Positions 1 through 48,372 are shown, numbered from the stretch's first letter. The stretch is DNA of 64,000 bases from Candidatus Danuiimicrobium aquiferis (GCA_001804285.1 MHFR01000016.1:13975-77974), one strand, 5' to 3'. Notes: generated by a model from the sequence alone, not told the origin. Made by a program: numbers and translations.

Positions 1-3000
1 GAGTTTTCCACGAATTTGTCGGCGAACGTGCGCGCGCCTTTTTGAAAGAACGGATTGACTGGGACATGAATATCGCGGAGCCGCTCGCCGCGCAGGATTG
101 GGTCAGCCGCATGAGCGTGTTAGTCGCCCGGCATAAGGATTTGATTGTGTCTTCGATTAAGGATATTGCTGATCTTGATGACACGCACAAAGTCACTTTG
201 TCTCAGCTTGGCACGGAATGGGAAAGCGAGAAACTGTATCCCGTCTTCGACTGGGGCAGTAGTCCGAATCCTTACCGGAGAGACCTCATTCCGTTTCTTG
301 ACGTGTTCGGAAAAGAAAAATTAAGGTTTCGATTTTGGCGGCATGCGTTGCGCGCTTTGGATGCCGCGAAGGAATCGTATCAATTGTTAGGTGATGTGAT
401 TTGGGAAAAGTGGGCAGAAAATTTAATCAGGGAAGCGACCGATGCCGGTGAGAAAACCAAAATCATCGAACGGATCATTCGCGAAGCAGAACCGCTTGAG
501 GTGTTGAAAACATCGATAGAGACAAGGGAGATGCGCGAAGAAATTAAAAAGTTAAGTATTTTTCAATGGCCGAGCGAAATCTTGTCAACGATCGTCAAAC
601 ATCGTAAGGGACAGTTTGATTTTTACGGCATGTCGGAGAAGAGCCGCTGGACGCGAATGGTTGAGACCTATAGTTTGAGAGCAACATTAATGAGTTTAGG
701 GCTTGGAGTTTTCTTTTTGTTAATAAATTATTTGCTAACGCTAAGTAATTTCGGCGGCAGTTTAGTGTTTCGAATGATTGGCGAGTGGAGCGGCCTCGTC
801 ACACTCGTTTTCGCGTTTATCTTTGTCATGACGGGGGGGATTGTGCGTTTCGTTTTTTCGACAATCCTTCAACGGGATTGGAAAAGTTTGATGGGGTGGG
901 ATTTTATTATTTTGATACAGCGCCAGGCCAAAGATGCCCAGGCGCTTCTTGACGGGTTGTATCTTTCGGGCGACATGGACCGCGCGCATGATGACTTGTT
1001 TCTTGCAAAAAAGGAATTTTGGACTGAAACAGCGAGGTTTTTGACCCTTTTAGGGTTTGTTGGGATATGGATCGTTCCGGTGTTTGCAATGCAATTAGGT
1101 CTCTATCCATCGATGATGGTATTCGGGCCGGTAGCGCTTGTTCTGCCATTTATTATTATTGGGCTTCAGTATGGTAAGTTTTCGGCGATGCGGAAAGCGA
1201 GTCAAAAACTTGAAGCGATTCGCCGTGCCGACGAAGAGGCATCCGTCAATACCTTTAACGATACGCATCGCTCCGAAGTTCGCTTCAATACGCCCAAAAC
1301 GGGGACAGGTTCTGGATCAACGAAATCAGAACCTGTCCCCGTTTTGGGTAGCCTTTATCAAAGCGCGCAAGTGTCCTCGCAGTTTTTTGCGAGGGCCGAA
1401 GCGCGCCAGCTTGTGCGGTCACCAGTTACGAATCAGCAGAGAACGCAAAGCCTGTCATTCCCGCATGCCTTAAGCGGGAATCTACAGCCTTGGATCCCCG
1501 CTTCCGCGGGGATGACACAAAAACTACGTGCCGAAGTTCGGGCGGCGAGGAAACCGAAAATTGATTCGCAGGAAAAAGTCATGACGGCGATCGATCCGAA
1601 TACGCACACCATTTTTATCGAAGCGCGGAAGGAAATACTGGATCAATTCGTAGTGAATTTGGCCAAGCTGTTATCGATTTCGGTAGAGGCGTTGCCGGTT
1701 GACATTCAAAATTTCTTGGCTGGTTCATCCAAGTCACTTGAATTGGGAAACCATTACTTTTTGCGCCGGCTTTCTTCCCCGGCGGACGGTGAACTTGCAC
1801 GGTTTGTTTTCACTTACCACATGAACAATCTGGCGTACGGCCAACAGGAAATATTTGATCAAAATAAGATTTGGGAAACTACGCAGACTACTTTTAAGTC
1901 GGTTATCCGTGGGACGATCGGGAAAACTCGAAAACTGGTTGAGACGGTTGAAAAGCCTATTTCCGAAAGGCAATTTTCAAGGTGGCTGACGGGAAAAACT
2001 TCCGGTGAAGCGGAGACGGTTCGAAGAATTCGGGAGATGACTGAAAAAGCGGGCGTTCTGAGCGCACGCGGCGATTTTGATCAGGCGGAACGTTATTTTT
2101 ATAAGGCTTTGCAATTGATCGAGCGGCATTCAACCGTCGAGGATTTAATTTATAAGTTGCAAGCGGGTGACGACACTATTCCGGTGTTACTTTCGGGCGA
2201 AGACGGCCTTGTCCGTGGCTATCTTCGGCAATTTATGAAAGCTCCGGAAGAAGCGATTGAGGATTTGGATCGTGTTGTGGAGATCTTGGATATTGTGGAA
2301 ACCGAGTTTGTCCGAAATCCCGTAATGGACGCGAGCGTTTGGGTGCCATCACTGATTGCTGCATATGTCGAACTCGCAAAGGCCTGCATTCATGATGACA
2401 GGGTTCCTCCGGGATTGAACGCCGTACGCCGTGCGTTCGAGTTGGTGGAGCAATTTTTGGAAATTACGGAAGCATCGCCGGAAATTGCGACTCTTTTTCA
2501 GGTTTTGCTCGATGGGATCGAATCCATGTGGACCGTGCCGGCTTTTGAGAACAATGCGCTTTCACGGGATGAATTTATTGATGAACCGGTTGAAGCGATT
2601 CGTATCGGAAATCAGATTTTATCCGAAGAGAAATTCCAGGCCCAAGTTCATCCTGAGGCGGTGAAAAAATTCCGCCAGCTCGAAAAAGACGTCAATGACC
2701 GGTTGAAACAGCTACAAATGCAGTACGAGGCGAATTCGTTTGATTGGCGCAATTGGCTTACGGGGCCGGATTTTAATTTAAATCAAGCGGTGACGTTGCT
2801 TGCCAGCGGTCCGGAAGCGCAATACGGGCTTTTTCACTATATGGTGCATCCGCAGTTCCGGCAGGTATCTGTTGTCGGACAACAGCATGCATTTCGCGCG
2901 ATGGAGAGCTTGGTCCGGTCAGAGAGGATCCTTTTGAGCAACGATTATATGTGGGAGCGTTTAGAGGCGCTTGAATATGTGACAGACCGTTATGCCATGA

Positions 3001-6000
3001 AAGAGTTCAGTGAATTTGCAGACGCTGTGAGAGAGTGGCGGCGTCCGCGAGCAAGCCATCCAGCCGGAATTGTGTCTCAGCAAGCAGCCAAACGTTCTGA
3101 GGATGTGTTGCCAATTCCTATCAAGAGGTCTGCTGCTTTGGTGCGGCAGACAATAGCGCTTTTAGAGCGAAAGGACGTGGATGTGTTGGCCCAGTCAATC
3201 GCGCATGCAGCTTCCTTGATTCCGGTGCGTACGCGTGCGGTCAATCAGGAGGATGTCAGAAAATGGACTCATCAGCTCGAATATCCAAAATTCAGAAATC
3301 AAGCGGAGGCCTTGCTTGTCGCGCGCGCAAAAGAAGGAGACTCAATCAAACAGATAGCATACGAAGCTACATCGGCTTTGGGTAGCGATGGAATTGCTGC
3401 ATCTATCGCTGCGATTTTTCTTGAGCTTGCGAAAGTGAACCAACGAATCACTATCCGTGCGCTGGTAAGTGTGAGCCAAAACCGGCAGCTGGGTCAAGCA
3501 TCTTTAAGGCTGCTTCGATGGTTTTTTGAAGATGACGAAGATCGTGTCCTTGCGATTTTGCGAGATTTTGCTTCTCCAAGCGAAGAAAATCCGCTGCTTC
3601 GCGAAAAAGCAGGTCTAGTGTTGGCTCAGTTCGTGCGTTCCGAAGCGCGAAATACCGATTTGTCGAAGGGTGATGCGGGAGCGGGTAAGGAAGGGGCTGA
3701 TGAATTGGTCGTTCAAATTGCTCGGCTCGCACAAGAAATCCGTAATAGGATAGAGATATTTATAGTAGAGGATACGAATTTTGCATTTCAGGAGCAAGAG
3801 CTGGAGGCCATTCGCAATGCGATGATTCTACTTGAAAAACTTGAAAGACAATCTGGATGGAAATTAAAAAAATTGCCGCCGAAAACGGAAGTAGTGACAA
3901 GAAAATTTAATGAATTAACAGAACAAGTTAAGAAATACCGGATAGCACTTTTGGGAAGCACAGCGGATGAACAAGTAGCTATGGCTTTGCCCGGAAGCAA
4001 GTTGAGCATAGAGCAGCTGCCATGGGGGAATGGGTTTATTGCGCAAAGGTTAGAAGCGTTTAAGGGAACGCTACAAAAAAGAATGAACACAATTCGCGAA
4101 GCGACTCGGATTATCGGGGTTGGCTATTCCAGCCTTTATGGGTTTGTGAGAGACCATCCCGATGCGGCGGAGTTTTATCATATCCGACAACCAGTCCTCT
4201 CTCCTCGGAGGGGAAAGCCTTCCAACCGGGCCGAAGCGCGCCACTCTGAAAATAGTTCCAAGGAATTATTAACCAAAGCGCGCAAGAGTCCTCGCGATGC
4301 ACAAGAGGATGGAGCGAGGGCCGAAGTTCGCTTCGAAAAAGATAGTACAAAAGAGATGCTTTATCAAGGCGAACGAGTGTCTTCGATACGGTCCAATATG
4401 GATGTATCGAGGGCCGAAGTGCGCGCGAAGGGGAAAAGCGGGCAGCTTTTAGGAATCGTGGTCCGAGGCGAAGACTCACCTCTTTGGGGGCAGTTTCAAG
4501 CCGCTGTTATCGGGGCGCTTCAAGTGAAGAGAGTTCTTGAAATCACACCGGCCAATCTTGAAATTTTTCATTATTCGCCACTTGATGGTGAAATCGGGGT
4601 TCTGTCAGTGACGAACAACCACAAACAACACAACGATTCTGGCAGTGTTGCGTTGGTGACATATAGTCTGAGAGTTGAGCGGGCGAAGCATGCCTCTGCA
4701 AAAGGCGGAAGCCGTAAAATTCTTAAAATCTCAGGACAAGACACCGGTTCGAATTATCAGAGCCTCGGTATGATGCGCCTCTTTTACGCTTATTTAAGCG
4801 CGTTCCATGGCATCAATCGTTTTGTCATTGACGTTAATACCGCACCCCGATTTCTCAAACGGTTAAAAGCGCAAGGTTTCATCCTTTCAATCCGCCAAAA
4901 AGGTTTATTCACCACCGTTGATTTGAATCATGAAAAATTAGCCGCCGTACTCCGTGTGTCTAGAGCTGAAGCCCGAGATAAGGGTGTTAAAACAGCCAAA
5001 AAGAGAATGAATGAAGAGGCCAAACTTCGCCGTCGCGCGGGGCGTTTGCGCAGGAATATTTGGAACTGGATTGCGGAAAATCCGGTTGTGTTTAAACGGA
5101 CACGACAGAAATATGTTACCAATGCACTCGGCCGGTTCAGGAAATACATCGACGAAACGCACGTAAGATTTGAACGGAAATGGCTCGATTATTTAATCAA
5201 AAAAGAGGCAGAGGTGACTCGTGTTTCATTGCCGGATCAACGGATACTCAGAATGATTTTTATTCCTCTTCAATCATTTATTCCGTTTTTCGAAACGCAT
5301 CAATATCCGGACGGTGATACCAGAGGTTTCGGTTTTTTGGAGGTTAATAAACGCAGCATTGGTTCTGGATTTTATTCTTATTCCCGGACTACCGGGGATA
5401 TGATTATCGGATTTCGGATCTTTCAGGAATTCCGCGAAAAAAATAACAAAGAAGTTTTTAAGGCGTTTTTGAATGCGCTTCTTCGTAAATTTCATCCGAA
5501 AAGATTTGTTGTGCCGAACCAGCAAATACATAATGCTGACACATCGCCGGCAGCCACTCTTTTTTATCTTAAGAGTGGTTTTATCCCTTACGGCGTTTCC
5601 CATAAAATACAAGCATCGGTAGACATGCGTTTTGTGCAACTGATGGAAGGACAGCGCTTGAGTTTGAAAACGATCCGTTCTTTGCACGATCGAATAGAAA
5701 GACATATTACCTTCACCGAAAACCCTTGGCTTTATGAAGGCGTTTGGGTTTCTCCGTTGATAAAACCCAAGAACGGACGATCGGAAGTTCACTCGCAGCC
5801 TCTTATTGATCAGAATGATGCTGCGAGTACAGCTTGGCCCTTAACGGCGTCGACTGTGTCTCCGCCAAGGGCTGAAGCGCGGATTTTTCATTCCGGTATT
5901 TTAGACCGTGGATTTCAAACAGAACTTAACGGGAACCAAGTCTATATGAAGGGACTCGACCGCGTCGCGTCACATCTCCTTTTGCCGAAGCGGTCCGAAG

Positions 6001-9000
6001 CGCGGGCGGACCGGTATGGGATCGATTGGGATGCAGTCGCGCGCGGGCTGTCGACGCAGCTTAGGAACATTGAAACGTTTGTTGTTGAGGCGACCACGCG
6101 TAAAGAATGGGCCGAAGTCACGCGTGAAGTGGAAAAACTGATCAACACGTTCAAAAAAGGCGTGCAGTTTGCGCCAACGGAGGTATTAAAAGGCCCTTCC
6201 TATGAGCAACTTTTCTTTCGGCTAAACCGTGTGGTCAAAATAGTGGCCGAAGAAACGGCAAAGATGCTTGTATCCCGCATTAACTCGGATGTGCTTATCA
6301 TTCTGGCGCAGCTTTCGCTTATAGTATTTCTTTTCGCCTTGGTAAGTCTTCCTGTCGCGATCGGTTTGTCTGCGCTGCTTTCCATTGGTTCGGTTTTGGC
6401 TCTGACCGGTATCTTGCGCGATCAAAATATGCGTAAGGTAACAGCCTCATGGCTTGCTCAAAAGCAGCGGGACATCGACGATCTGGCCGCGAACGGGCGG
6501 AAAGAAGACGCTTTCAGAACTGAACGTTCCGAAGCGCGGACGGAAACAAGCGGACAACCCCAAAAGTTTTGGGTGCCACACCGTGTGTTGATTGTCGAAG
6601 ACGATGATGTTTCTGCGCGTTTTTATAAAGCACAAATAAGGGCGTTTTGGAATTTGAACGAAGATCAAATTGACATCGTCTCTTCTGGAGATGAGGCAGT
6701 TTTGCGTTTTTATCCTGAATATCCGGCGACCTATGATCTTCTCATACTAGATCATGATTTGCCGGGCGAAATCCATGGTAAGGATGTTTTAGCCCTGGCG
6801 CGGCTCAAATCTAAACAAACAATGATTGTCTTTAACTCAGCCAACAGTGTTGCGAGACAATCGGTAAGAGATTCCGGGCTGGCCGATCTGGTTGTGCCCG
6901 GAAAGATCGGCGTTGAAAAAGACTTGTCGGATCCAAAATCAGATATCAGCGTTTGGCTCCGTGAAACAAACAGCATTGCTTCCTCTCGGCGGTCCGAAGC
7001 ACGAAGTGAATTCCCATTAAATCAAGAAGAAGAACGGATTTTGCGCGAATTGGGAATGTCTGTTGATGAAAAAACAGGAAAACTTTTTTATATCGATAGA
7101 ACCGGTGAACCGAGAGTCGAACTCGAGGCAGATGTGTCAATTGTGCGGCACGGTGAAACTTTACTGATTGAACAAAGCAGAAAAGATGGGCTTCAGCGTT
7201 TTCAGGGAGCATTAGATGGCCCGGAGAATCAGCTCTCGGAAGAAGGAAAACGGCAGGCCGAAGAATCGGCATTGAAATTATATCAAGAGCTTATTGAAGA
7301 ACGGAAGCTTGATCCCCGTGAACTTATTCTTGTTTCAAGTCCATTGACAAGAGTGTTGGATACGCTGCAGGCTTTTATTGATCTTGTTAAGGAAAGAACC
7401 GGATATGAACTAAAAATAACGCGTGATGAAGAGCTCGAGCGCCTTGCTATCGAAATCAGTTTTGGCGCCTATGAAAATTTAACCGAACCGGAAATTCGCG
7501 CCATGGGCGAAAAAGATTATCAACTTGCCCGGGCGTTTCGAAACGGCCATGCGCTGGTTCGATTTCCGGCGGGAGAGAAACCGGGCGAAAGTTTCGTCCA
7601 GGATTTAGTCAGAGCGTATTATTTAACGAAATATATCAATGAACATTACCGCGGGAAACATGTTGTTCTTGGAAGCCACGGGACGACTTCTGGCGCGATG
7701 CGAGTCATTCAAAAAGATCCGGCCATGTTTAATGCCGATGGATTTGTTGATTGGCGAACGAATATGCTAAAGCCGGCTCAGGTCTTCCATTTATCGAAAA
7801 TGAGCCGCCGCGCTCCGTCTCAAAAAGGCTGGAGCGATAAAGAACTATTGGGATTAGCCAGAAGAGCGTGGAATCTCGGCTATCAGCCGGAAGAAAAATC
7901 CGAGCGGCCGGTTCCTGATGTTATGGGATTGATCGCGAAACAATTGGCCGTCGAAGATAATCAAAAAACCCGCCGACCGGAAGCACCTAACGAAATTGCC
8001 AGAGCCAATTCATCGGAGGGCATTCAACGACAGATTAAAGCAATTAATGATAGTCTGGTTAAGTTGAGGCGTATGGAACTTGACTTACTCACCCGGCTGC
8101 GTTATCCCACTGAACACACTTTTCCCTACTGGCGGAATATTTCGGAGAAAGAGTTGCGCGCAGAATTGGAAGCAGTCAGAGCACAAATTGCAAAATTAGA
8201 CACAACAGCAAATGCTCTGAGGGATAAACTCGGTCGTTCCGAAGTTCGCAACATTAATAATAGTTCCGGGTTCCGAGTTTCTGGTTCCGAGTTAAATTCA
8301 CAATTAGGAACTCGGGACTCGAAACTCAAAACTTCCGCCGAAGGCGGACGTGCCGAAGTGCGGCAGGTGAAACGGCTTGTCAATTTTAATCGCATTGTTG
8401 ATTATCTTAAGAAACAAAAAATATCACAACAGGCGCTTCATTATTTAAACGAAATGCGTTTTGATTTTCAAATTCATATGACCGACGAAAGTAATGTTTT
8501 GAAACGCTTTGATTTCTCTGCATTGGATGAGGAGGATCGTCTGGTTTTACAGGAAGCTCTGAACAAATGGGTAGAAATATTTCAACAATGCAAAGCTTAT
8601 ATTAATGGAGAGGCGTGGGTTAGATATTCTCGAGTCCTCGAGTTTCTTTTGGCGGAATATGGTGGCTTAGAGAAACTGAGAGGAAAAAAAGTGGTTGAGC
8701 TCGGGCCATCTGACCGGGATGGGCTCTTGCGGTTTTTGAAAGATTCCGGGATTGATTCAATAGGATACGATGTGAATCCTGCGGTTCAAAATGATTTAGT
8801 GAAACCGGCGGATTTTTTTCGGGTGGCTGAGGATTATGCGCCAAACACGGTCGAAGTTGTATTTAGTGTTGATTCATTAACGGTGCCGTATATGATCCAA
8901 GCGAGCGGATATAGCCGCAATGAAGTTTATCGCACGGAAAACATGAATCGCTTGATGAAAGATTTGAACAGAATGATGACCTCAACAGGAACAGTGATTT

Positions 9001-12000
9001 TTGAGATGGAGCCGGTTCAAGATTTGGATACGTCGGGTTTTGCAATCATTGAACAACCATTAATGGACCTTCGTGGATTTTGGGTTTTCAAAATACAACG
9101 TGCCGAAGTTCGCAACCTTGCAGACCAAAAAGGGGACAGGCATATGACTCCTGTTGAGCAATTGCCTGTCCCCTTTTTGGCTAATCAAGGCGAACGAGTG
9201 TCCTCGCAGCCTTTTGCGAGGGCCGAAGCGCGCGCGGAGAGTCAGCCATTTTTTGTCGAACGGAAGATGCCGTTCGTTGAGATGGTGCAAGCGCTGCCGG
9301 AACTCTCTGAAGAATTGAAAGCCCAATTTGATTATGCGCGTGCAATTTATTTTGGGGATAAAAATCGTGCGGCTGATTTATGGAAATCGCTGGCTGAACA
9401 TGGATATAAGCTCATCGGAGGGAAATGGTACGCCATGGTGTTTTCTGTCAAAATAACGCTGGCCGGGGCGAGTATTGAGCCACTTCAACCAGACAGCTTC
9501 TTCTCGCATCTTCAGGTGGTGTTGGGCCATGAACTCAAGCATCTGGATCCTGCTTTGGCCATGAAGCTGTATGAGCATCTCGGATACTTTTTTTCAAATA
9601 TGAAAGTTGATCCGAGAATTCTCCCGACGGTATTTGATCTGGATTTGAGCCGCGCCTACTATTCCGAAGGCACACTTCCGGACGGAAAAGTTTTAACGCA
9701 TGTTATATTCCCTAACACCATTAACAGAAGCGTGTCAACGTCCGATTATGTGAGCGAATTTTTCTTTGTGGATGGTGTGTTCTATGCGTATGGAGCCATG
9801 CATGACTTTTGGTCGAATGCTGAGTTGGAAGAAAGCTTTTCAGTGCTTGAAGCAGAAAATGGAAATGCGATTGGACGTGGCGTTCCTCACCTTGCCCGTG
9901 ATGTATATGAAGCGCGTCTCAAAACCATTTTGAAAATTCTGCCGGGCCGGGTGGTGCGAGTTCCGTCGGCACAATTCTCTCTGAAAGCAGACGGGCACAG
10001 CGCGCTTATTTTTTATCTCAAACTCGGGTTTCGCCCGCGGCCTTTGCCGGAGGATATTGACTTGAGAAGCAAAGTTGATGACTGGATGGCAAAGCTTGAT
10101 AGCGATCCAAAACTCCGTATTCCCGAGCGTGAAATCGAACGGTTTTTATTGCGCATGGGAGAAAAAAACCTGTATTACATTCCGCCGGAAATGTTGAGAA
10201 GGGCCGAAGCGCGCTTGAATTCGGTTAATTCAACCACTGCCCTATCGCAACTATTAAATAAAAAGGATTTATTGAATGAAGCGATAGGACTGTCATGGCT
10301 TCCGATAAATATGTTTTCACATAGTCAATGGAAAGCCATGGCTGCTTCGGGCGATGCATTGAGGCATCGCTCCGAGCTGCGAGCGGGGTTACCCGAATTG
10401 AATGGAGAAATTCCGGGCGAGTTTACGCCGAAACAAGTTGCGCGGAAAATCCGGCAATTTTCAAAACAAGCTTTTGAGGAGAAGGAGCGCGGTAAAAAGT
10501 TCAACCTTGTTTTGACACAAACGGAAGAACAGCTTCCGGAAGAAGTGACGGTGACGGCGAGAAATTTAGATGCGCGTATGAGACGAGTGAACCGATTTTT
10601 AGCAGGATTTCCGAAGGGATACAGGTTTAAACTTTACTTCGTCAACGCTCAAATTCCCGTATTGATAGTGTCTCAAGCTCAAGAAATTCCAGCTGGCGCT
10701 ATTGTCAAAGCAGACGTTTTAATGAATAAGTTAAAACATGCGAATGATGCACTCGTCAATATCATGATGACATTAAATCAAAGTAAAAATCTAGTGACGA
10801 AAGGAAATTTAACGCATCTTCGAAGGCAACTCGCAATTGTGAGACAAATATATGATGACCAAGAAGGAATGTTAAAAAAAGAATTTCAGAAAGCCTATGC
10901 AAATGCAGATAAAACTGACTTTTTGCTTATGTTTATGTTGGCTGGTGCGCTCAAAGCTGTGGCGCACATTGTCGATCAAGGAAGCCCGAAATTACCCCAA
11001 CCTGTGAATTTTACAAATTTGTTGCAGTCATTAATGCCCATGACGAAAGCATTCGATTATCCGATACAGGTTACGGATGACACCTCAATTTTAAATCGCT
11101 CCGAAGTACGACTTATGCAACCGATGATGGAAAATGCAGCTGAAATGAAAACCGCTCGACCGAGCGCGACTCAACCGAGCAGTGTGGAACAATTGGAAAA
11201 TGCGAGGGATTATTTGAATCCGGCTTTAAGTTCGAGCCGGGTGACGCGTTTCGCTAAATCGGGAATTGAAGCGCCAACAACATCTTCGACGGCTACAAGG
11301 CGTGTTTCAACAGAAATTAATCGTTCTTCGACCCCACCAAGACGCTCTTTAACTTCATCCATATCTGTACGAAGCGCACCCAAGCCTTCAGCAACAACCC
11401 GAAAATCACTTTTGAGATCTTCAACTAATACACCAACTTCACGTGCGGTAAAATCTGACGTCATGGCAATAACACCTTCTCTTTCTGCGGGAGACCGAAA
11501 TTTAGCAGACAAACCGGAAGTTGTCAATATAAATCAAGATCATAATAATATTGAGTTTAAATCAACGGTAGAGATTCCCACATTGCCTCGCAATGACGAA
11601 CGATTGATCTCTGATTCCTCAATTAACCAAGCTGCCGATCATGTGGCGCTTGCGATTGCGCCGGAATCGGTTTCGTTGAATCCGGGAGACGAAATCCAGC
11701 CGGCGGACGTTCAGCGGGAACTGGTGATATTAAAGGAAGTTGATGTTGATGTGTTCAGTGAAAAACTTCGCGCTGCAGTCATTAAAAAATTGAAAGAACT
11801 CAATCCACAGGTTGACGTTGAAATTGTTGATCCTGAAATCGTGAAACAGTTAACGGGAAACTGGATCGACTTACTCGCGGAAAAATTGAGCGGCAAATTA
11901 TCGATTGCATTTGAAATGAGCGGTCAGTTGACGGTGGATAAAATAGTTGAAGCGTTTCAAGCTGAAGGCTTTCGCGGACGGATCAAAAATTTGATTCTGA

Positions 12001-12464
12001 CCGGTGAGCGCGTTAATTTGACTCCGGATCAGCGGAAAACGATTGGGCTGCCGGTGATGTTGAGAAATCAAGTGGATTTCAGAAGATTAAATCCGGAACG
12101 GGTGCTGAGTCAAAGCGTTCTTCCGGTTGTGAGTAAAAACCCCGAATTTCAATTAGGCCCGAACAATCCCGGCTTTTTGGAAGTTGGGGTCGACACCAAC
12201 CGGGTTGATTCCGATCCGTATCTTGAGCTAACAGAATCAGTGCTTCAAATTGTAATCGGTTTATTAGCTGCAGAGAAAATTAAAAAAGTGAAAGATCTCA
12301 CAATCGAGCAAATCAGAGCCGAGCTTTTGAAGGATTTATTTATCGGATACGGAAGCCGGGAAGATATTGTCCGCATTGATCAAGGGCGGCTGATTATTTC
12401 AAGGTTGGCGCTGAGGCTCTTTTTGGAACACGAAATGACGAAACGGGTGGAGATGTCGGCGTAA
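1..12464 (+). CDS. Giant multidomain membrane protein, 5'-partial (open to the window edge). It has N-terminal and mid-protein transmembrane clusters, a CheY-like receiver domain, a histidine-phosphatase (RHG...SHG) domain and a class-I methyltransferase-like segment.
   Basis: A single stop-free frame runs from nt 3 to 12464 (more than 4150 codons), which cannot occur by chance at this GC. Its amino-acid composition is protein-like over almost its whole length. Recognisable motifs: receiver 'VLIVEDD...LLILDHDLPG...K', 'RHGET' and 'GSHGT', 'VVELGPSDRDG'. Hydrophobic helices lie at about nt 680-1190 and 6280-6420. The frame stays open upstream of the track's TTG at 42, so the gene continues beyond the window. 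Confidence 0.7.
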   Translation, partial: VFHEFVGERARAFLKERIDWDMNIAEPLAAQDWVSRMSVLVARHKDLIVSSIKDIADLDDTHKVTLSQLGTEWESEKLYPVFDWGSSPNPYRRDLIPFLDVFGKEKLRFRFWRHALRALDAAKESYQLLGDVIWEKWAENLIREATDAGEKTKIIERIIREAEPLEVLKTSIETREMREEIKKLSIFQWPSEILSTIVKHRKGQFDFYGMSEKSRWTRMVETYSLRATLMSLGLGVFFLLINYLLTLSNFGGSLVFRMIGEWSGLVTLVFAFIFVMTGGIVRFVFSTILQRDWKSLMGWDFIILIQRQAKDAQALLDGLYLSGDMDRAHDDLFLAKKEFWTETARFLTLLGFVGIWIVPVFAMQLGLYPSMMVFGPVALVLPFIIIGLQYGKFSAMRKASQKLEAIRRADEEASVNTFNDTHRSEVRFNTPKTGTGSGSTKSEPVPVLGSLYQSAQVSSQFFARAEARQLVRSPVTNQQRTQSLSFPHALSGNLQPWIPASAGMTQKLRAEVRAARKPKIDSQEKVMTAIDPNTHTIFIEARKEILDQFVVNLAKLLSISVEALPVDIQNFLAGSSKSLELGNHYFLRRLSSPADGELARFVFTYHMNNLAYGQQEIFDQNKIWETTQTTFKSVIRGTIGKTRKLVETVEKPISERQFSRWLTGKTSGEAETVRRIREMTEKAGVLSARGDFDQAERYFYKALQLIERHSTVEDLIYKLQAGDDTIPVLLSGEDGLVRGYLRQFMKAPEEAIEDLDRVVEILDIVETEFVRNPVMDASVWVPSLIAAYVELAKACIHDDRVPPGLNAVRRAFELVEQFLEITEASPEIATLFQVLLDGIESMWTVPAFENNALSRDEFIDEPVEAIRIGNQILSEEKFQAQVHPEAVKKFRQLEKDVNDRLKQLQMQYEANSFDWRNWLTGPDFNLNQAVTLLASGPEAQYGLFHYMVHPQFRQVSVVGQQHAFRAMESLVRSERILLSNDYMWERLEALEYVTDRYAMKEFSEFADAVREWRRPRASHPAGIVSQQAAKRSEDVLPIPIKRSAALVRQTIALLERKDVDVLAQSIAHAASLIPVRTRAVNQEDVRKWTHQLEYPKFRNQAEALLVARAKEGDSIKQIAYEATSALGSDGIAASIAAIFLELAKVNQRITIRALVSVSQNRQLGQASLRLLRWFFEDDEDRVLAILRDFASPSEENPLLREKAGLVLAQFVRSEARNTDLSKGDAGAGKEGADELVVQIARLAQEIRNRIEIFIVEDTNFAFQEQELEAIRNAMILLEKLERQSGWKLKKLPPKTEVVTRKFNELTEQVKKYRIALLGSTADEQVAMALPGSKLSIEQLPWGNGFIAQRLEAFKGTLQKRMNTIREATRIIGVGYSSLYGFVRDHPDAAEFYHIRQPVLSPRRGKPSNRAEARHSENSSKELLTKARKSPRDAQEDGARAEVRFEKDSTKEMLYQGERVSSIRSNMDVSRAEVRAKGKSGQLLGIVVRGEDSPLWGQFQAAVIGALQVKRVLEITPANLEIFHYSPLDGEIGVLSVTNNHKQHNDSGSVALVTYSLRVERAKHASAKGGSRKILKISGQDTGSNYQSLGMMRLFYAYLSAFHGINRFVIDVNTAPRFLKRLKAQGFILSIRQKGLFTTVDLNHEKLAAVLRVSRAEARDKGVKTAKKRMNEEAKLRRRAGRLRRNIWNWIAENPVVFKRTRQKYVTNALGRFRKYIDETHVRFERKWLDYLIKKEAEVTRVSLPDQRILRMIFIPLQSFIPFFETHQYPDGDTRGFGFLEVNKRSIGSGFYSYSRTTGDMIIGFRIFQEFREKNNKEVFKAFLNALLRKFHPKRFVVPNQQIHNADTSPAATLFYLKSGFIPYGVSHKIQASVDMRFVQLMEGQRLSLKTIRSLHDRIERHITFTENPWLYEGVWVSPLIKPKNGRSEVHSQPLIDQNDAASTAWPLTASTVSPPRAEARIFHSGILDRGFQTELNGNQVYMKGLDRVASHLLLPKRSEARADRYGIDWDAVARGLSTQLRNIETFVVEATTRKEWAEVTREVEKLINTFKKGVQFAPTEVLKGPSYEQLFFRLNRVVKIVAEETAKMLVSRINSDVLIILAQLSLIVFLFALVSLPVAIGLSALLSIGSVLALTGILRDQNMRKVTASWLAQKQRDIDDLAANGRKEDAFRTERSEARTETSGQPQKFWVPHRVLIVEDDDVSARFYKAQIRAFWNLNEDQIDIVSSGDEAVLRFYPEYPATYDLLILDHDLPGEIHGKDVLALARLKSKQTMIVFNSANSVARQSVRDSGLADLVVPGKIGVEKDLSDPKSDISVWLRETNSIASSRRSEARSEFPLNQEEERILRELGMSVDEKTGKLFYIDRTGEPRVELEADVSIVRHGETLLIEQSRKDGLQRFQGALDGPENQLSEEGKRQAEESALKLYQELIEERKLDPRELILVSSPLTRVLDTLQAFIDLVKERTGYELKITRDEELERLAIEISFGAYENLTEPEIRAMGEKDYQLARAFRNGHALVRFPAGEKPGESFVQDLVRAYYLTKYINEHYRGKHVVLGSHGTTSGAMRVIQKDPAMFNADGFVDWRTNMLKPAQVFHLSKMSRRAPSQKGWSDKELLGLARRAWNLGYQPEEKSERPVPDVMGLIAKQLAVEDNQKTRRPEAPNEIARANSSEGIQRQIKAINDSLVKLRRMELDLLTRLRYPTEHTFPYWRNISEKELRAELEAVRAQIAKLDTTANALRDKLGRSEVRNINNSSGFRVSGSELNSQLGTRDSKLKTSAEGGRAEVRQVKRLVNFNRIVDYLKKQKISQQALHYLNEMRFDFQIHMTDESNVLKRFDFSALDEEDRLVLQEALNKWVEIFQQCKAYINGEAWVRYSRVLEFLLAEYGGLEKLRGKKVVELGPSDRDGLLRFLKDSGIDSIGYDVNPAVQNDLVKPADFFRVAEDYAPNTVEVVFSVDSLTVPYMIQASGYSRNEVYRTENMNRLMKDLNRMMTSTGTVIFEMEPVQDLDTSGFAIIEQPLMDLRGFWVFKIQRAEVRNLADQKGDRHMTPVEQLPVPFLANQGERVSSQPFARAEARAESQPFFVERKMPFVEMVQALPELSEELKAQFDYARAIYFGDKNRAADLWKSLAEHGYKLIGGKWYAMVFSVKITLAGASIEPLQPDSFFSHLQVVLGHELKHLDPALAMKLYEHLGYFFSNMKVDPRILPTVFDLDLSRAYYSEGTLPDGKVLTHVIFPNTINRSVSTSDYVSEFFFVDGVFYAYGAMHDFWSNAELEESFSVLEAENGNAIGRGVPHLARDVYEARLKTILKILPGRVVRVPSAQFSLKADGHSALIFYLKLGFRPRPLPEDIDLRSKVDDWMAKLDSDPKLRIPEREIERFLLRMGEKNLYYIPPEMLRRAEARLNSVNSTTALSQLLNKKDLLNEAIGLSWLPINMFSHSQWKAMAASGDALRHRSELRAGLPELNGEIPGEFTPKQVARKIRQFSKQAFEEKERGKKFNLVLTQTEEQLPEEVTVTARNLDARMRRVNRFLAGFPKGYRFKLYFVNAQIPVLIVSQAQEIPAGAIVKADVLMNKLKHANDALVNIMMTLNQSKNLVTKGNLTHLRRQLAIVRQIYDDQEGMLKKEFQKAYANADKTDFLLMFMLAGALKAVAHIVDQGSPKLPQPVNFTNLLQSLMPMTKAFDYPIQVTDDTSILNRSEVRLMQPMMENAAEMKTARPSATQPSSVEQLENARDYLNPALSSSRVTRFAKSGIEAPTTSSTATRRVSTEINRSSTPPRRSLTSSISVRSAPKPSATTRKSLLRSSTNTPTSRAVKSDVMAITPSLSAGDRNLADKPEVVNINQDHNNIEFKSTVEIPTLPRNDERLISDSSINQAADHVALAIAPESVSLNPGDEIQPADVQRELVILKEVDVDVFSEKLRAAVIKKLKELNPQVDVEIVDPEIVKQLTGNWIDLLAEKLSGKLSIAFEMSGQLTVDKIVEAFQAEGFRGRIKNLILTGERVNLTPDQRKTIGLPVMLRNQVDFRRLNPERVLSQSVLPVVSKNPEFQLGPNNPGFLEVGVDTNRVDSDPYLELTESVLQIVIGLLAAEKIKKVKDLTIEQIRAELLKDLFIGYGSREDIVRIDQGRLIISRLALRLFLEHEMTKRVEMSA
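1268..1406. repeat. In-frame palindromic insert module bounded by ccgaagttcgc and ggccgaagcgcgc. It has a 20-bp stem (cccaaaacggggacagg / cctgtccccgttttggg) and a gcgcgcaagtgtcctcgc / gcgagggccgaagcgcgc hairpin.
   Basis: Inverted repeats read directly from the sequence; translated as ...RSEVR...ARAEAR... Confidence 0.7.
1452..1519. repeat. MITE family B copy (tgtcattcccgc...gcgggaat / ggatccccg...cggggatgaca) lying in-frame inside the giant ORF.
   Basis: Near-identical to the intergenic copy at 17495-17567. Translated in-frame as SLSFPHALSGNLQPWIPASAGMTQK. Confidence 0.75.
4228..4426. repeat. Composite in-frame repeat module: three tandem ggccgaag[ct]gcgc units, each with a caa[ag]gcg..gtcctcgc hairpin arm.
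   Basis: Sequence repeats; translated RAEAR...ARAEVR...SRAEVR. Confidence 0.65.
6526..6575. repeat. In-frame module ccgaagcgcgg + ccccaaaagttttggg hairpin, immediately before the receiver domain.
   Basis: Shares the motif and the palindrome with the module at 1268. Confidence 0.55.
8235..8364. repeat. In-frame module bounded by cgttccgaagttcgc and gtgccgaagtgcgg, with ccgagtt / aactcgg and ccgccgaaggcgg palindromes.
   Basis: Sequence repeats; translated RSEVR...RAEVR. Confidence 0.6.
9098..9237. repeat. In-frame module with the same architecture as 1268-1406: ccgaagttcgc, a ccaaaaaggggacaggc / gcctgtcccctttttgg stem, then gtcctcgc..gcgagggccgaagcgcgc.
   Basis: Aligns along its whole length with the module at 1268-1406. 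Confidence 0.7.
10201..10290. repeat. In-frame module gggccgaagcgcgc + ttgaattcggttaattcaa palindrome + ccctatcgc / gcgataggac hairpin.
   Basis: Read directly from the sequence. Confidence 0.5.
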
Positions 12465-12891: not shown

Positions 12892-12921
12892 TTGACATTT
12901 ACTCTATAAGTTTGATATAAT
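12892..12921 (+). promoter_or_regulatory. Sigma70-like promoter for rplM-rpsI: TTGACA, 18-nt spacer, TATAAT.
   Basis: Exact consensus hexamers with an 18-nt spacer, about 75 nt upstream of rplM. Confidence 0.6.
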
Positions 12922-12996: not shown

Positions 12997-13425
12997 ATGC
13001 AAAAAACATTTATTCCAAAACGAAAAGATATTAAAGAAGAGTGCTATCTCATTGATGCACACAATAAAATTTTAGGCCGGCTTGCCACGCAAATTGCAAA
13101 TCTCCTGATGGGAAAAGGGAAAGTTTGTTACGTGAAGCATGTTCAGTGCGGAGATCGTGTCGTGATCACCAATGCGAAGGGCGTGAAAGTAACGGGCCGA
13201 AAAGCGGATACAAAAACATACGCTCATTACACCGGATATCCGGGCGGCTACGAAGAGTTGCCATTCAAAGAAGTTTTGTCGAAACATCCCGAGCGGATTA
13301 TTGAAGAAGCGGTGAAACGGATGCTTCCCAAAAACCGATTGCGGGCGAAATTATTAAAAAGACTTCATATATATGCTGGCGCTGAACACGAACAAGCAGC
13401 GCATAAGCCAGTCGTGTTGAATTAA
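12997..13425 (+). CDS. rplM: 50S ribosomal protein L13
   Basis: 142 aa. The N-terminal sequence and length are typical of L13, and it is adjacent to rpsI. Confidence 0.93.
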   Translation: MQKTFIPKRKDIKEECYLIDAHNKILGRLATQIANLLMGKGKVCYVKHVQCGDRVVITNAKGVKVTGRKADTKTYAHYTGYPGGYEELPFKEVLSKHPERIIEEAVKRMLPKNRLRAKLLKRLHIYAGAEHEQAAHKPVVLN

Positions 13426-17356: not shown

Positions 17357-17494
17357 AGATTAAAATAAGGTGTTAAATTTTGAATGGATTATGCTCAAGT
17401 TGACATAACCTATTCATTTGACAAAAGATAAGCAATTTTTTATAATATCGACTCACATTTTTTTAACTTAAATGATTTGAACTCTGCAAATTTC

Positions 17495-17567
17495 TGTCAT
17501 TCCCGTAAGCTTTAAGCGGGAATCCAGAAAAACATGGATCCCCGATAAAAACATTCGGGGATGACAA
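17495..17567. repeat. MITE family B copy (two gtcattcccg..cgggaat / ggatccccg..cggggatgaca hairpins)
   Basis: Inverted repeats in the sequence; intergenic between rnc and argC. Confidence 0.75.
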
Positions 17568-20181: not shown

Positions 20182-20209
20182 TGTCATCCCCGCGAAAGCG
20201 GGAATGACA
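20182..20209. repeat. MITE family B single hairpin (tgtcatccccgcgaaagcgggaatgaca)
   Basis: Palindrome in the sequence. Confidence 0.65.
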
Positions 20210-23640: not shown

Positions 23641-23746
23641 GATCCCCGCATGTTTTTAGCGGGGAACCATTGTTCTGGATTCCCGCCTCCCTGGAAATAC
23701 AGGGCCGGCCCTCGCTTTACCGAGGGAAGGCATGCGGGAATGACAA
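23641..23746. repeat. MITE family B full-length copy, in opposite orientation to the copies at 27769 and 32232
   Basis: The reverse complement aligns with 27769-27878. Confidence 0.75.
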
Positions 23747-32187: not shown

Positions 32188-32231
32188 GAGGAGTAGAGAG
32201 TGAAGAGGGCAGAGAAGAGAGTATCTTTTCG

Positions 32232-32340
32232 TGTCATCCCCGCATGTTTCCCTTGGGAAAGAAAGGGCCGGCCCCAGTTTTTCCGGGGTAGGCGGGGATC
32301 TACGATTCTGGATTCCCGACAAAAACATTCGGGAATGACA
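32232..32340. repeat. MITE family B full-length copy overlapping the 5' end of the next ORF
   Basis: Near-identical to 27769-27878. Confidence 0.75.
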
Positions 32341-35300
32341 CAGGTCTTGGGTATTTGCAAAATTTTTTTTAGTGTCCAGTGTCTATTGACTTTATTCTGC
32401 GCTTGTGTACTTACATTCTTTGCCCCATTGGCAGTGCACGCTATCGTCACCAACCAAACCAACGTTCTTGGTAATGAAAGTTTTGAGTTGGCGCTCGGTG
32501 GCTCCGGAAATTGGGATAATACGCCGGGGCGCGCAATTAGCAATCCCAGCATAACAGGTGCTGTTGATGGTGCGCATGTGCTTCGCTTAGGTGAAATTAC
32601 CGGTGGAAGTTATACATTTCAAACTGTGACTGGAGTTAAGGCAGGTGATTATATTGGTTTAAGTATTTATGCTCGTCGCCTCAACTCTGATGGTACCAAT
32701 TGCCAGTTTCTTATAGAATTTCAAACCAGTGCCGGAGCTCTTATTTCAAGCACCGTACCTGTCGAAGTTACTTCCTCATCTTTTATGCAACATACTACCG
32801 GAGACACTGCGCCTGCTGGTACCGGACAAATTGTGTATGTTTTGAGGCTAAATGGTGGCGTTGCGACAGGCGGTACAACTATCGGTGAATTTGATGCTGC
32901 CGTTGGAACGGTTTCGAGTTTGCCGATCATTATGGATTCTTCGGCTTCAAAGCCTAATCTTACCAAAGGAAGTGCTACATTTATCAGCAACCGGATGAAA
33001 AATATTTCTGGTAGTACGCTCAATAATGTTCAAATGGTGGTCACCGTACCGGAAGGATTTGTATTTATTGATTCTGCGTCACGGTTGGACGGAACACCGA
33101 TTAATTCTACGAAAGGTTCAAGAATCTTTTCGATTGGTTCAATCGGCGGGTTTGAGTATAAGGACCTCGGATTTTTGTTGGTGGCTTCGCAGGCGGTTCA
33201 GATTGGGAAACGATATGAAGTTTCGTTTTATGCACGTGACAGCGTTGCCGGAACGGTTCTTTCTAATATTCAAAGAATGGAAATTGTCATTTCTGCCGAC
33301 CCATTTTTCGACGAAGGAACGATTCTTGGGAAAGTGTTCGACGATAAAAACGAAAATGCGGTGCAGGACAAAGGTGAAGACGGTATCAGCGGCGTCAAAA
33401 TCGCGACGGAAGAAGGAATTGTGGTGGTGACGGATCCTCGCGGCCGGTATCACATTCCTGCAATCAAGCCGGGCCGGCATGTGGTTAAAATAGACGGGCA
33501 CACGCTTCCGAAGAATACAAAATTTGTTTCGGAAGAATCGGTGTTGATTAAAACCACAAACGGAATGATGAACGTCGTGAATTTCGCGGCGAAACTTCCC
33601 GAATCAAAAATCCCGGAGAGCCATCGCGATAAATTAAAAGTCATGGTGACGCAGGGAACGGATTTTGAAAAGCCGGAACTGGCCGTGACGATGCAGCCCG
33701 AAGTTCTGCGAATGGGCGTCGGAGTGTTTGAAGAAGATCCACGTTTTATTATTAATACGAATTACGGAGAGTTAATCGCGGGTTGGCGAATTGAAGTAAC
33801 GGATCAATTTGGCGAAAAAGTATGGGCAGGATACGGCCTCGGAGTTCCGCCTGCGGAAGCGCCGTGGACGGGAAAGAAAGCCAACCGTGATCCGGTGGAG
33901 AAGGGTATCTATGCGTACCGCTTAGTTGTCCGCGATAAAGAAGGCCATGAAGATTGGACGCCGCTCAGGTATTTCCGCGTTGTAAGCAAGCTTGATTCCC
34001 ACGTGCCCGATCATCCGGACATTCAGGTCCCGGCGGCGGGAAATATGGTGATCAATCGGGACGGCAAGCGCAGTATTCCGATTAATGCGAAACCGAAAGT
34101 TCTCATTCGCGGGACGACCCAACCGTGGAATACGGTGGCGGTGAATGGGGAACAGGCGACGGTTCATTTGGACGGAACGTTCAGCAAAGAAATATATGTT
34201 CCGCCCGGAAAACAATCTGTGACCGTAACGACTACAGATCAGAATGGGAATGCCGTTTCCTATCAGGAAGATGTGGATGTGAAAGATACGATGTTTTTTA
34301 TGGTTGGGTTGGGCGAACAGGAAATGGGAGCCAATTTTCTTGACGGGAATCTTGAAGCTTTGGGCCGCGACGAAAAATTCCATCAGGGATTTTATCAGGA
34401 CGGCCGGCTTGCGTATTATTTAAAAGCGAAAATAAAAGGGAAATTCCTCGTGACATCCCGTTATGATACCGACGATCCGCGAACTGCTTTCTTTACCAAT
34501 TTAGACCCCGATCAGTATTATCCGGTTTACGGGGATGATTCACAGATTCAATATGACGGCGAGACCGCCAACCGTTTTTATATTTTAGCCGAAATGGACC
34601 GTTCGTATTTGAAATGGGGGAGTTTCAGTACGAATTTTACAGATACTGAACTTGCGTCGCACAACCGGACATTTTCCGGCCTCAAGATTCATTATGAGAC
34701 GTTGGCCATGACGCGTTATGGCGACGCGAAACGGGGGTTTGCGGTTTACACGGCGAACGTCAAGCAATTGGGTGATCATAACGAATTTATCGGGACCGGA
34801 GGATCACTCTTTTATTTGCGGAATAAAAATGTGATTCAGGGAAGTGAAAAAGTCCGGGTGGAGGTTCGCGATTCCATTCAAAATATTCCGGTCTACAGCA
34901 AAGACCTTGTTTACGGCACCGATTATGAAATTGATTATCCTCAAGGGCGGATTATTTTGAGAAAACCGCTTTCGGCTGTGAGTTTCTCCGATTACATCAT
35001 CTCGAATGATATTTTGAACGGCAGCGATACCTATTTGCTGGTTGATTATGAATTTGATCCGCAAGGAGAAATGAATAACGGCAATAACGGAATTCGCGGG
35101 TATACGCATCTCGGCGACCATTTCAGGGTTGGAGGAACAGCGATTGAAGACCGGCAGCCGGGGAAGGATTACGATTTGCGGGGCGTTGATTTGACCGGAA
35201 AATTCGGAAAAAATACGAAAATAATGGCTGAATATGCGCGTTCACAAGGCAGCACGAACCGGAATGCGATCTCTTATAACGGTGGAATCACATTTACGGA

Positions 35301-47904: not shown

Positions 47905-48372
47905 ATGAAAATTTTTGATTATCAAACCCGTGTTCGATATGCCGAAACCGACCAAATGCATGTGAGCTATTATGCCAATTACTTCGTTTGGTTTGAGGCG
48001 GCCCGAACAGAATACTTTCGCGCGATCGGGCTGGTGTATGCTGATTTTGAAAAACAGGGGCTATTCCTTCCGGTAGCCGAAGCACATTGCCGGTATCTTG
48101 GGCCGAGCTGCTATGACGATGCGCTTGTGGTTCGTACGGTTGTGAGTCAGATGCGCCAAAGGTCGCTCCGGTTCGAGTATCAAATCTTTAAAAATCTTCC
48201 TCAAGTCGCCAATCCTTTTGAAGGTGCAAAGCCGATTGCGGCAGGTTATACTGTCCACGTGTTTAGCGATGCCAACTTAAAGCCGGCTCGTATTCCGGAT
48301 GCGCTTCGATCGAAGGTTGAGTTGGCCAGCTTGGATATGTCACAATCAGTCAGGCGATCAAATTTCCGATAG
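47905..48372 (+). CDS. Acyl-CoA thioesterase (YbgC/4HBT hot-dog family)
   Basis: MKIFDYQTRVRYAETDQMHVSYYANYFVWFEAARTEYF, typical of 4HBT proteins. Confidence 0.75.
   Translation: MKIFDYQTRVRYAETDQMHVSYYANYFVWFEAARTEYFRAIGLVYADFEKQGLFLPVAEAHCRYLGPSCYDDALVVRTVVSQMRQRSLRFEYQIFKNLPQVANPFEGAKPIAAGYTVHVFSDANLKPARIPDALRSKVELASLDMSQSVRRSNFR

Follow-up and report, generated by a model that had tools for sequence, protein, structure and literature searches.

A recurrent boundary pentapeptide and structured in-frame spacers punctuate a giant gene of an Omnitrophota bacterium

How are the parts of a protein kept apart, and perhaps set free, when a single reading frame strings together many unrelated modules? 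The question is raised by a stretch of 64,000 nucleotides (nt) from Candidatus Danuiimicrobium aquiferis (GCA_001804285.1 MHFR01000016.1:13975-77974), called the window below, with positions counted from its first letter. The beginning of the window is occupied by the distal part of a giant open reading frame (ORF). The most unusual feature of this ORF was missed by the original prediction, an earlier annotation made from the sequence: a pentapeptide, R[AS]E[AV]R, recurs along the chain as a boundary mark and is accompanied by hairpin-forming spacers. The pattern of these marks suggests, with a probability that we put at roughly 0.45, that each is a site-specific cleavage site in a polyprotein-like chain. 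The L13, S9 and ArgJ proteins are identical to those of four "Omnitrophica bacterium RIFCSP..." metagenome-assembled genomes, which carry the UniRef name Ca. Danuiimicrobium aquiferis, and by this identity the source is an Omnitrophota bacterium of Rifle aquifer groundwater, represented by a metagenome-assembled genome.

Nucleotides 3-12464 are the distal part of one chromosomal gene of about 25.9 kb. Frame 3 of the + strand is open from nt 3 to a stop codon at 12462-12464 (4,153 stop-free codons), and the other frames of 1-12464 hold no ORF longer than 172 residues. Because no stop precedes nt 42 in the giant frame, the gene must be truncated at its 5' end by the window start, just as the original prediction had claimed. 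The original prediction had also called for the contig to be extended upstream and for assembly chimerism to be excluded. A 100% identical contig of the European Nucleotide Archive (ENA), k141_296588, reaches a called start about 550 nt from the contig end and gives a protein of 8,641 residues (25.9 kb), of which about 4,488 lie upstream of the window; the window holds the distal 48% of the gene, and the counts of marks, domains and transmembrane helices given here cover that part. Six independent assemblies (three from ENA, the others from NCBI, JGI and Logan), retrieved through the neighboring L13 protein, match the window at 99.98-100% over 2997-23425. An apparent variant in one of them (L002) turned out to be a run of N in a scaffold and not a real difference.

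It is extremely improbable that the frame is an artefact, either an assembly chimera or several genes joined by frameshift errors. The sequence is metagenome-assembled, and public contigs often break within the gene, for example at window position 4584. However, the six assemblies are identical, 4,153 successive sense codons are not a chance outcome, and the same punctuated design is seen again on three unrelated contigs (see below). Promoters and terminators are not enriched inside the giant ORF, which argues that the region is no ordinary operon, and no tandem repeats were found in it. Homologues of the whole window protein were not found by word search; a HMMER search with the first 1,200 residues against 1.84 billion representative proteins returned as its sole match a 281-residue fragment of the same gene, and PDB sequence searches with the whole protein and with three module regions gave no meaningful match. 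Scans of genome and metagenome contigs aimed at the upstream 13.5 kb of the gene came back empty.

Within the window ORF, R[AS]E[AV]R occurs in 18 exact copies and two variants (RSEVH and RSELR), as compared with 0.05 copies expected from composition, and it is absent from the other five frames and from the remaining ~51 kb of the window. A DNA-level pattern for the mark gives 11 matches where 0.06 are expected. Cut at the marks, the chain falls into 12 domain-sized modules of 150-698 residues (the first, truncated by the window start, has 422 residues in the window) and nine short spacers of 25-51 residues. Marks are present at every module junction, between recognizable domains and never within one, the recognizable domains of the window being a histidine phosphatase (His_Phos_1) and a receiver. 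The receiver (residues 2180-2329) and the phosphatase module (residues 2335-2744) are each delimited exactly by marks. Two kinds of junction exist. One is a solo mark; the other, a doublet, has a spacer of 19-51 residues between its left and right marks. Solo marks are mostly RSE[A/V]R, with CGY TCC GAA GCG CGG as the usual coding (21 exact copies, counted over the window and the related loci described below). No conservation was found beyond the five residues of the mark, and a full-text search of the literature for the peptide motifs returned nothing. A suspected pairing between motif positions 4 and 11 was rejected, as all four A/S x A/V combinations occur.

All marks located by the motif scan of the window lie on the + strand. 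The first three, RSEVR (1269-1283, the left mark of a doublet), RAEAR (1392-1406) and RAEVR (1527-1541), are followed by a solo RSEAR (3636-3650) and by a triplet at 4227-4424 (RAEAR 4227, RAEVR 4317 and RAEVR 4410) that encloses two copies of the canonical element described below. A solo RAEAR, coded AGA GCT GAA GCC CGA, occurs at 4962-4976, and the segment 5778-6005 contains the variant RSEVH (5778), RAEAR (5868) and RSEAR (5991), which enclose two spacers. Solo RSEAR marks stand directly before the receiver module (6525-6539) and between receiver and phosphatase (6990-7004). Further along are three doublets, RSEVR...RAEVR around a 33-residue spacer (8235-8363), RAEVR...RAEAR around a composite linker (9099-9233), and RAEAR with the variant RSELR around a 51-residue spacer (10200-10382); finally, a solo RSEVR (11097-11111) precedes the last module.

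The same punctuation recurs elsewhere. A DNA pattern made of the conserved hairpin and the adjoining mark, which matches the window four times, recovered three metagenomic contigs (L007, L008 and L009) that have no other DNA similarity to the window beyond the element; phylum is assigned for the window locus only. L007 carries a complete ORF of 1,738 residues (113-5329, - strand) with an N-terminal hydrophobic signal and nine exact marks, L008 a 5'-truncated ORF of 2,841 residues with 15, and L009 an ORF of 262 + 1,031 residues, split by one in-frame TAG, with 11; the search pattern itself accounts for only four of these 35 copies. The marks of each locus are confined to a single frame, giving 53 exact copies over the four ORFs. 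Recognized modules on the three contigs include HPr (E 2e-12), HEAT, peptidase M23 (E 1e-7) and a receiver (E 3.5e-8), with weaker matches to FHA and 2H-phosphoesterase, and every one of these domains sits between marks, with none crossing a mark. Segment lengths across the four loci are bimodal, 19-54 or 64-698 residues, the exception being one 5-residue piece at a contig edge. The modules are mutually unrelated, with one paralogous pair across the four loci.

Domains abut the marks with almost no linker; the receiver of L009, for example, starts about 7 residues past a mark. L008 combines M23 and HPr in one chain with no convincing transmembrane helix, and L007 has a Tat-like signal, SRRRFLVAAGLGAAGIIGG, 32 residues after an internal RAEAR (TIGR01409, 15.4 bits against a cut-off of 16.7). 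The genes that flank the three ORFs are housekeeping genes (mdh-sdh-sucC, nusG-rplA-rplL, an NlpC/P60 peptidase and a response regulator), and no transposase, RAYT or reverse transcriptase gene was found near any of the four loci. The TAG of L009 (787-789) falls midway through a HEAT-like module, has marks before and after it, and may represent a sequencing error, readthrough or a pseudogene lesion. The window protein ends in a small Ala-rich tail, VEMSA (12441-12464), and the ORFs of L008 (about 8502-8525) and L009 (about 3859-3882) end in VAQAA and QFVAA; such tails recall ssrA-type degrons, although the likeness may be due to chance in three cases.

Many of the doublets contain a structured element that is read in frame. 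In L007-L009 the canonical doublet consists of RSE[AV]R, a spacer of 19-22 residues with (Q/R)VSS toward its end, and RAE[AV]R, for a total of 90-96 nt. Three helices have support in A4, an alignment of 11 doublets. Helix A brings together codons 4-5 of the left mark and, about 37 nt farther downstream, a GCGNRC segment. Helix B is formed by GUCCUCGA and UCGAGGGC and contains an invariant U.G pair; its 3' arm overlaps the right mark's AGG GCC codons. In a short outer helix, the first codon of the left mark pairs with the right mark. In A4, 95.9% of cells are paired, as compared with at most 47% in slid controls; compensatory changes occur at five pairs, one of which shows all four Watson-Crick types, and the observed values of pairing and covariation were reached by none of 500 shuffles. 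RNAalifold independently recovers the same helices.

A covariance model built from A4 finds 15 copies at E <1e-4; each lies on the sense strand of a punctuated ORF, and each has a length that is a multiple of 3. With the same model, no convincing copy of the canonical element was found outside the punctuated ORFs in ~96 kb, and viral contigs contain no copy. Rfam holds no matching family, the sole hits being sub-threshold matches to generic hairpins (microRNA). A hammerhead or other ribozyme was considered and rejected: the conserved cores are absent by eye and Rfam gives no match.

Within the window, every spacer is flanked by a mark on both sides, and all are stop-free with lengths that are multiples of 3. 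Most fold into hairpins at the nucleotide level, and four (with starts at 1269, 4227, 4317 and 9099) are homologous at the DNA level; these window elements vary more than the canonical form, their left mark being RAE[AV]R or RSEVR and their spacers 25-36 residues long. The linker at 1269-1406 is a composite, in which the canonical structured element (54 bits in the covariance model, 36-residue spacer, folding free energy -76.6 kcal/mol, z -9.4) carries a nested perfect 22-bp palindrome (1293-1314 / 1327-1348). The linker at 9099-9233 is built in the same way (57.6 bits, -71.2 kcal/mol, z -8.0), with a nested perfect 18-bp palindrome at 9125-9142 / 9163-9180. The two palindromes are related (CCAAAAxGGGGACAGG...), lie in the loops of the elements, and differ in ways that keep pairing perfect within each. 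The triplet at 4227-4424 encloses two canonical elements with spacers of 25 and 26 residues (76 and 30 bits), and the 33-residue spacer of 8235-8363 forms a hairpin with a stem of ~20 bp (-49.6 kcal/mol, z -4.5; 26 bits). Hairpins are also predicted by folding for the spacers at 5778-5882 (-41 kcal/mol) and 10200-10382 (51 residues, -65.7 kcal/mol), while the spacer at 5868-6005 shows no structure above shuffled controls. Finally, the spacer at 1392-1541 includes, at 1452-1512, an in-frame copy of a hairpin repeat resembling repetitive extragenic palindromic (REP) elements, TGTCATTCCCGC...GCGGGGATGACA, which has intergenic copies at 17494-17524, 20182-20202 and 23727-23745 (arginine operon).

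Is the conserved entity the peptide or the nucleic acid that encodes it? CGN as well as AGR codons specify the Arg residues of the marks, codons 1, 4 and 5 vary at the wobble position, and rare copies are wholly recoded with the peptide kept, such as AGA AGC GAG GTC CGG for RSEVR in L009. Judged from this codon usage, selection acts on the peptide, and a nucleic-acid constraint is also present. Solo marks join a 5' half that is typical of left marks (CGY TCC GAA) to a 3' half that is typical of right marks (GCG CGG), and because of this half-and-half composition a doublet reads as a solo mark with an 81-nt in-frame insert between CCGAAG direct repeats. Two near-identical inserts lie between different modules in L009, and insert subfamilies are common to several loci, which is what a mobile or converting element would produce.

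The cleavage reading is favored because a mark is found at every junction, including both sides of each spacer, because domains abut the mark with almost no linker, and because junk sequence (nested palindromes and an intergenic-type repeat) gathers only between two marks. It is further favored by the mixing of compartments in L008 (M23 with HPr) and L007 (N-terminal and internal Tat-like signals) with no convincing transmembrane helix between, which is easier to explain if modules gain free N-termini. In the mechanism that we propose, the mark would be read at the protein level as a module-boundary signal, where a dedicated endopeptidase would cut. The giant gene would act like an operon translated as a polyprotein, with the modules released separately and the spacers discarded. 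The structured element would have entered a solo mark as an 81-nt in-frame insert between CCGAAG direct repeats and would have regenerated a complete mark on each side, so that the encoded junk peptide would be removable. Other hairpin repeats, including the intergenic REP-like family, would accumulate in the disposable spacers.

Several results weigh against this model. No cleavage product has been observed and no protease is tied to the motif. Pfam and PDB searches reveal no protease domain in the 4,153 residues, and the sole candidate in cis is an HExxH motif that matches no family; a trypsin-like S1 peptidase encoded at 50346-51131 is merely nearby (38 kb), with nothing linking it to the marks. 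Five residues with no flanking conservation would be a small target for recognition; a search of 5.8 billion proteins with a motif profile, by a method insensitive to a 5-residue motif, came back empty; and only four loci are known. In addition, synonymous sites of the core KCCGAAG are conserved much more strongly than codon usage would predict, and this is true even of solo marks, which lack a partner to pair with: TCC accounts for ~84% of solo Ser codons as compared with a usage of 14%, and GAA for 51 of the 53 Glu codons. This synonymous conservation argues for some RNA- or DNA-level constraint that a pure protease-site model does not explain, and the covariation of doublet wobble positions within the helices indicates that the sequence is also shaped by nucleic-acid structure.

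One might also place the function of the junctions in the nucleic acid. The 15-mer and the element would then be the footprint of a mobile or recombinogenic in-frame element, either a selfish one like the Rickettsia palindromic elements (RPEs) or a single-strand transposon that targets CCGAAG in the manner of palindrome-associated transposable elements (PATEs) and REP elements, or else conserved homology patches for in-frame shuffling of modules between giant genes, with the peptide being incidental. Such an account fits the synonymous conservation of the CCGAAG core in four unrelated loci, the solo-plus-insert structure of doublets with its direct repeat, the sharing of element subfamilies among loci and the near-identical pair beside different modules in L009, as well as the nested palindromes and the intergenic REP-like family within spacers. 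Hardly any of the modules are related to one another, and the giants themselves are orphans. Strand is also relevant. The U.G pairs imply that only the sense strand, as mRNA or top-strand DNA, folds in this way; GC skew is positive in every 2-kb bin of the window, with nearly all genes on the + strand, and the skew makes the sense strand of the giant gene the lagging-strand template, which bears on models of single-strand-DNA mobility. Nevertheless, we consider this account quite unlikely. Solo marks outnumber doublets and have no structure partner, recoded copies break the DNA core but keep the peptide, and all 53 copies are in one phase and specify the same peptide. Moreover, the four loci have no transposase, RAYT or reverse transcriptase nearby, and the ~96 kb searched contain no canonical element outside the punctuated ORFs. 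A nucleic-acid function of this kind can coexist with cleavage.

A constraint on both peptide and codons could also reflect an event during translation. The nascent peptide and the codons (UCC/GCC GAA), together with the downstream helices, might program a pause; alternatively, the mark might cause release or skipping of the StopGo type, or, as in T4 gene 60, ribosomes might hop from one GAA codon of a doublet to the other. Helix A begins directly 3' of the left GAA, a Shine-Dalgarno-like GAGG lies 3 nt before the right GAA, and TCC and GCC are rare codons in this genome, all of which would suit such a mechanism. It is very unlikely even so: the spacers are always in frame and stop-free, which argues that they are selected for translation and not for bypass, and solo marks lack any structure. 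We know of no bacterial precedent for peptide-bond skipping.

Cleavage and insertion can be combined in a broader proposal, which we regard as possible but doubtful. Some Omnitrophota giant genes would be single-frame equivalents of operons, with a punctuation code at the protein level that is executed by a protease or by a translational event, and would specify a cellular, chromosomal polyprotein. A mobile structured element would home to the DNA or RNA of the mark and bring a second mark with it, so that the peptide it encodes is excised. The excision would be functionally analogous to that of an intein or intron, but would work through flanking cleavage sites.

What, then, are the modules that the marks delimit? 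Besides the His_Phos_1 and receiver modules, ten have no detectable relatives. Hydropathy predicts six transmembrane helices in the window part, in even-numbered clusters of four (residues 229-388, nt 687-1166) and two (residues 2097-2134, nt 6291-6404, within the module of residues 2002-2174), in agreement with the clusters placed by the original prediction at about nt 680-1190 and 6280-6420. The histidine phosphatase of the original prediction is borne out as well. The 410-residue module at 7005-8234 contains a Pfam His_Phos_1 match (residues 2380-2564, nt 7140-7694; E 7.3e-16, 58.8 bits against a cut-off of 21.7) with both catalytic motifs in place, RHGET at nt 7146-7160 (residue 2382) and GSHGT at nt 7671-7685 (residue 2557). 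On the strength of this match, the module belongs to branch 1 of the histidine phosphatase superfamily (PF00300) and is of the PGAM type; its C-terminal part is predicted as long helices with a predicted local distance difference test (pLDDT) score of 74-87.

The neighboring receiver module (150 residues, nt 6540-6989) is a subtler case. Pfam gives no match at E<=1 and CheY is reached in the PDB at E 0.74, while NCBIfam response-regulator models match residues 2194-2291 with a best E of 7e-6, partially and far below their full-length cut-offs. Signature residues (acidic pocket, phospho-acceptor Asp, Ser and Lys) occur in the expected order: VEDDD (6594-6608), LILD (6741-6752, with the phospho-acceptor Asp), FNS, and PGK (6897-6905). 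The predicted model, obtained with AlphaFold2 in the absence of an alignment (for receiver and phosphatase together the mean pLDDT is 42, for modules 15-17 it is 34), alternates strands with helices at pLDDT 50-67, and nearly all Foldseek matches to this low-confidence model are receivers, the top ones being KdpE, RcsB, ArlR, ArcA and Spo0A with target TM-scores of ~0.5. The CheY-like identity that had been proposed is supported, not proven, by these sequence and model comparisons.

Other assignments fared less well. A methyltransferase-like stretch had been proposed within what is now a 245-residue module (8364-9098), and its Rossmann likeness is confined to motifs, VVELGPSDRDG at 8694-8723 and GYDVNP at 8763-8780. 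Motif I of class I SAM-dependent methyltransferases reads ELGPSDRDG here rather than GxGxG, no Pfam, NCBIfam or PDB match was found, and the AlphaFold2 model (pLDDT 34) is too poor to lend structural support. The HELKH motif that had been pointed out (an HExxH, as in zincin metallopeptidases; residue 3176, nt 9528-9542) is indeed present in a 322-residue module (9234-10199), but no family in Pfam, NCBIfam or PDB searches stands behind it, nor does the model (pLDDT 34). Of the other modules, one of 698 residues (1542-3635) has no homologue and a weak TPR-like match (residues 683-709) below the cut-off, and the last, of 450 residues, has a start rich in Ser, Thr, Arg and Pro after the mark at 11097-11111. 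Receiver and phosphatase had also been taken as a self-contained phospho-signaling module, an interpretation that we do not retain: an RSEAR mark separates the two, as marks do between every pair of modules, and the fact that they adjoin consequently points to a functional unit no more strongly than it does for any other neighboring modules. A SixA-like link between the histidine phosphatase and a phosphorelay is possible.

The giant protein is a membrane-anchored, multi-domain Omnitrophota giant, and it may be asked whether it is cut at all. On a beads-on-a-string model, to which the original prediction was close, it would remain one membrane-anchored megaprotein of ~950 kDa, in which the mark is a structural cap or spacer and the hairpin-encoded peptides are tolerated as flexible linkers. 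The even numbers of transmembrane helices (4 and 2) would keep all large modules on one side of the membrane, and giants that have transmembrane helices only, with cytoplasmic domains, make up 46% of the published catalogue. No protease has been found, and giant-ORF peptides were detected in V. archaeovorus with no processing reported. A structural linker, on the other hand, needs neither five invariant residues nor a second copy beyond every spacer; the domains leave almost no flexible residues next to the marks (~7 in the case of the L009 receiver), and domains of mixed compartments plus an internal Tat-like signal occur in chains with no convincing internal transmembrane helix. The model is, in our judgment, rather unlikely.

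The surroundings of the gene are those of an ordinary chromosome. A sigma-70-type promoter with a 12/12 match to consensus (12892-12921, + strand, from a promoter scan) precedes rplM (12997-13425) and delimits the unit of the giant gene on its downstream side. The window further includes rplM-rpsI, an AsmA-like gene, rnc, genes of arginine and lysine biosynthesis, uvrA, ftsH and hrcA-grpE-dnaJ. At 48299-51131 a TPR protein with a matrixin-like (M10) segment is encoded, with the S1 peptidase (261 residues) on the opposite strand at 50346-51131; these two are possible trans-acting proteases for the marks, though nothing links them to the giant gene. An ORF of 1,582 residues (32200-36948), which probably encodes a surface protein and has SdrD B-like and glucodextranase-B-like domains, has no boundary marks, showing that large size alone does not bring punctuation. 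Farther away, the span 53165-61530 looks like a genomic island integrated at a tRNA gene: tRNA-Pro(GGG) occupies 53165-53238, a tyrosine integrase is encoded at 53347-54375, and next come genes for a Schlafen/AlbA_2 protein and for a restriction-modification system of type I (hsdR, hsdM and hsdS).

How does this gene compare with what has been described? Omnitrophota are known for giant ORFs of >20 kb, which show little conservation, have sparse annotation and usually encode transmembrane helices (Seymour et al. 2023, PMC10066038; West-Roberts et al. 2023, bioRxiv 10.1101/2023.11.21.568195; Nielsen & Lui 2026, bioRxiv 10.64898/2026.06.07.730766). One described class consists of membrane-anchored giants that tile unrelated domains (methyltransferase, GNAT, receiver and others), and the claim of the original prediction that the architecture matches no standard one has to be given up, since giants that tile unrelated regulatory and enzymatic domains were already on record in this phylum. 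The present gene is like them in phylum, in length (>20 kb), in its few annotated domains, lack of conserved homologues, transmembrane helices and tiled unrelated domains (receiver, phosphatase and possibly a methyltransferase or GNAT), and in its housekeeping chromosomal context beside ribosomal-protein genes. It differs in size class: as called, its 8,641 residues satisfy the ORF criterion of >20 kb (Seymour et al. 2023) but fall below the protein threshold of at least 10,000 residues in the 2026 catalogue (Nielsen & Lui 2026). Neither a boundary peptide nor linker hairpins nor structured RNA inside ORFs is mentioned in Seymour et al. 2023, West-Roberts et al. 2023 or Nielsen & Lui 2026. Published work on Omnitrophota giant proteins suspects post-translational cleavage and states that the cleavage points are not known. 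As a set, the recurrent marks appear to be the first concrete indication of where such proteins might be cut or subdivided.

This matters beyond a single locus, because giant ORFs, with chains of 9,000-147,000 residues, are a signature of Omnitrophota and other host-dependent bacteria. The mark is a precise and testable cleavage-site candidate that can guide proteomics. It also allows giants to be split computationally into modules for structure prediction, and it provides a co-occurrence handle for finding the responsible protease. The structured element, for its part, is constrained at once by reading frame, peptide motif and base-pairing, and may explain how modules are gained or exchanged.

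Among cellular proteins, the MARTX toxins of Vibrio are likewise giant chains of unrelated modules, which are shuffled among strains and released by cleavage at short linker sites. MARTX toxins have a cysteine protease domain that cuts after Leu, glycine-rich repeats and a type I secretion signal, and their linkers lack a structured nucleic-acid element. In contrast, no protease was identified in the window part of the giant protein, and neither glycine-rich repeats nor a type I secretion signal were seen in the window. Viral polyproteins (of picorna-, poty- and flaviviruses), in which one ORF encodes many mature proteins, share the single ORF and a short conserved peptide at every junction; here, however, the gene is cellular and chromosomal, there is no known cognate protease, and some junctions are doubled around spacers. 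With respect to the receiver and phosphatase modules, SixA-type histidine phosphatases offer a parallel, in that a PF00300 member lies beside a receiver and L008 has an HPr-like module, a carrier of phospho-His; they differ in that no HPt or kinase partner was identified and a mark separates the two modules.

The spacers invite comparison with mobile palindromic sequences. RPEs are reportedly the subject of a study by Ogata et al. from 2000. At least as summarized in PMC1779305, they are selfish palindromic repeats located in frame within protein-coding genes. Like the elements described here, RPEs are hairpin repeats of ~100-150 nt inside ORFs, in frame and stop-free, that add a tolerated peptide. 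Unlike these elements, which are found only at module boundaries of punctuated giant ORFs, RPEs also occur in many ordinary genes and in intergenic DNA; moreover, our elements are bracketed by a conserved peptide mark and form a family common to unrelated contigs, with only the REP-like family being intergenic. The PATEs of IS200/IS605 transposons and the REP/RAYT systems are short, non-autonomous elements with subterminal hairpins that insert strand-specifically beside a fixed target of 4-6 nt, which reappears at the other end. The present element has the hairpins, the strand specificity and a fixed target that recurs at the other end, but the 96 kb of context showed neither a TnpA nor a RAYT gene, and to our knowledge elements of the PATE/REP type are not bound to an open reading frame. 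With neither a protease nor a transposase found, and with no copies outside giant ORFs, the system lacks a defining property of each of these relatives, but by analogy it resembles MARTX toxins and viral polyproteins most in how it may work, and its spacers are most like RPEs or PATEs.

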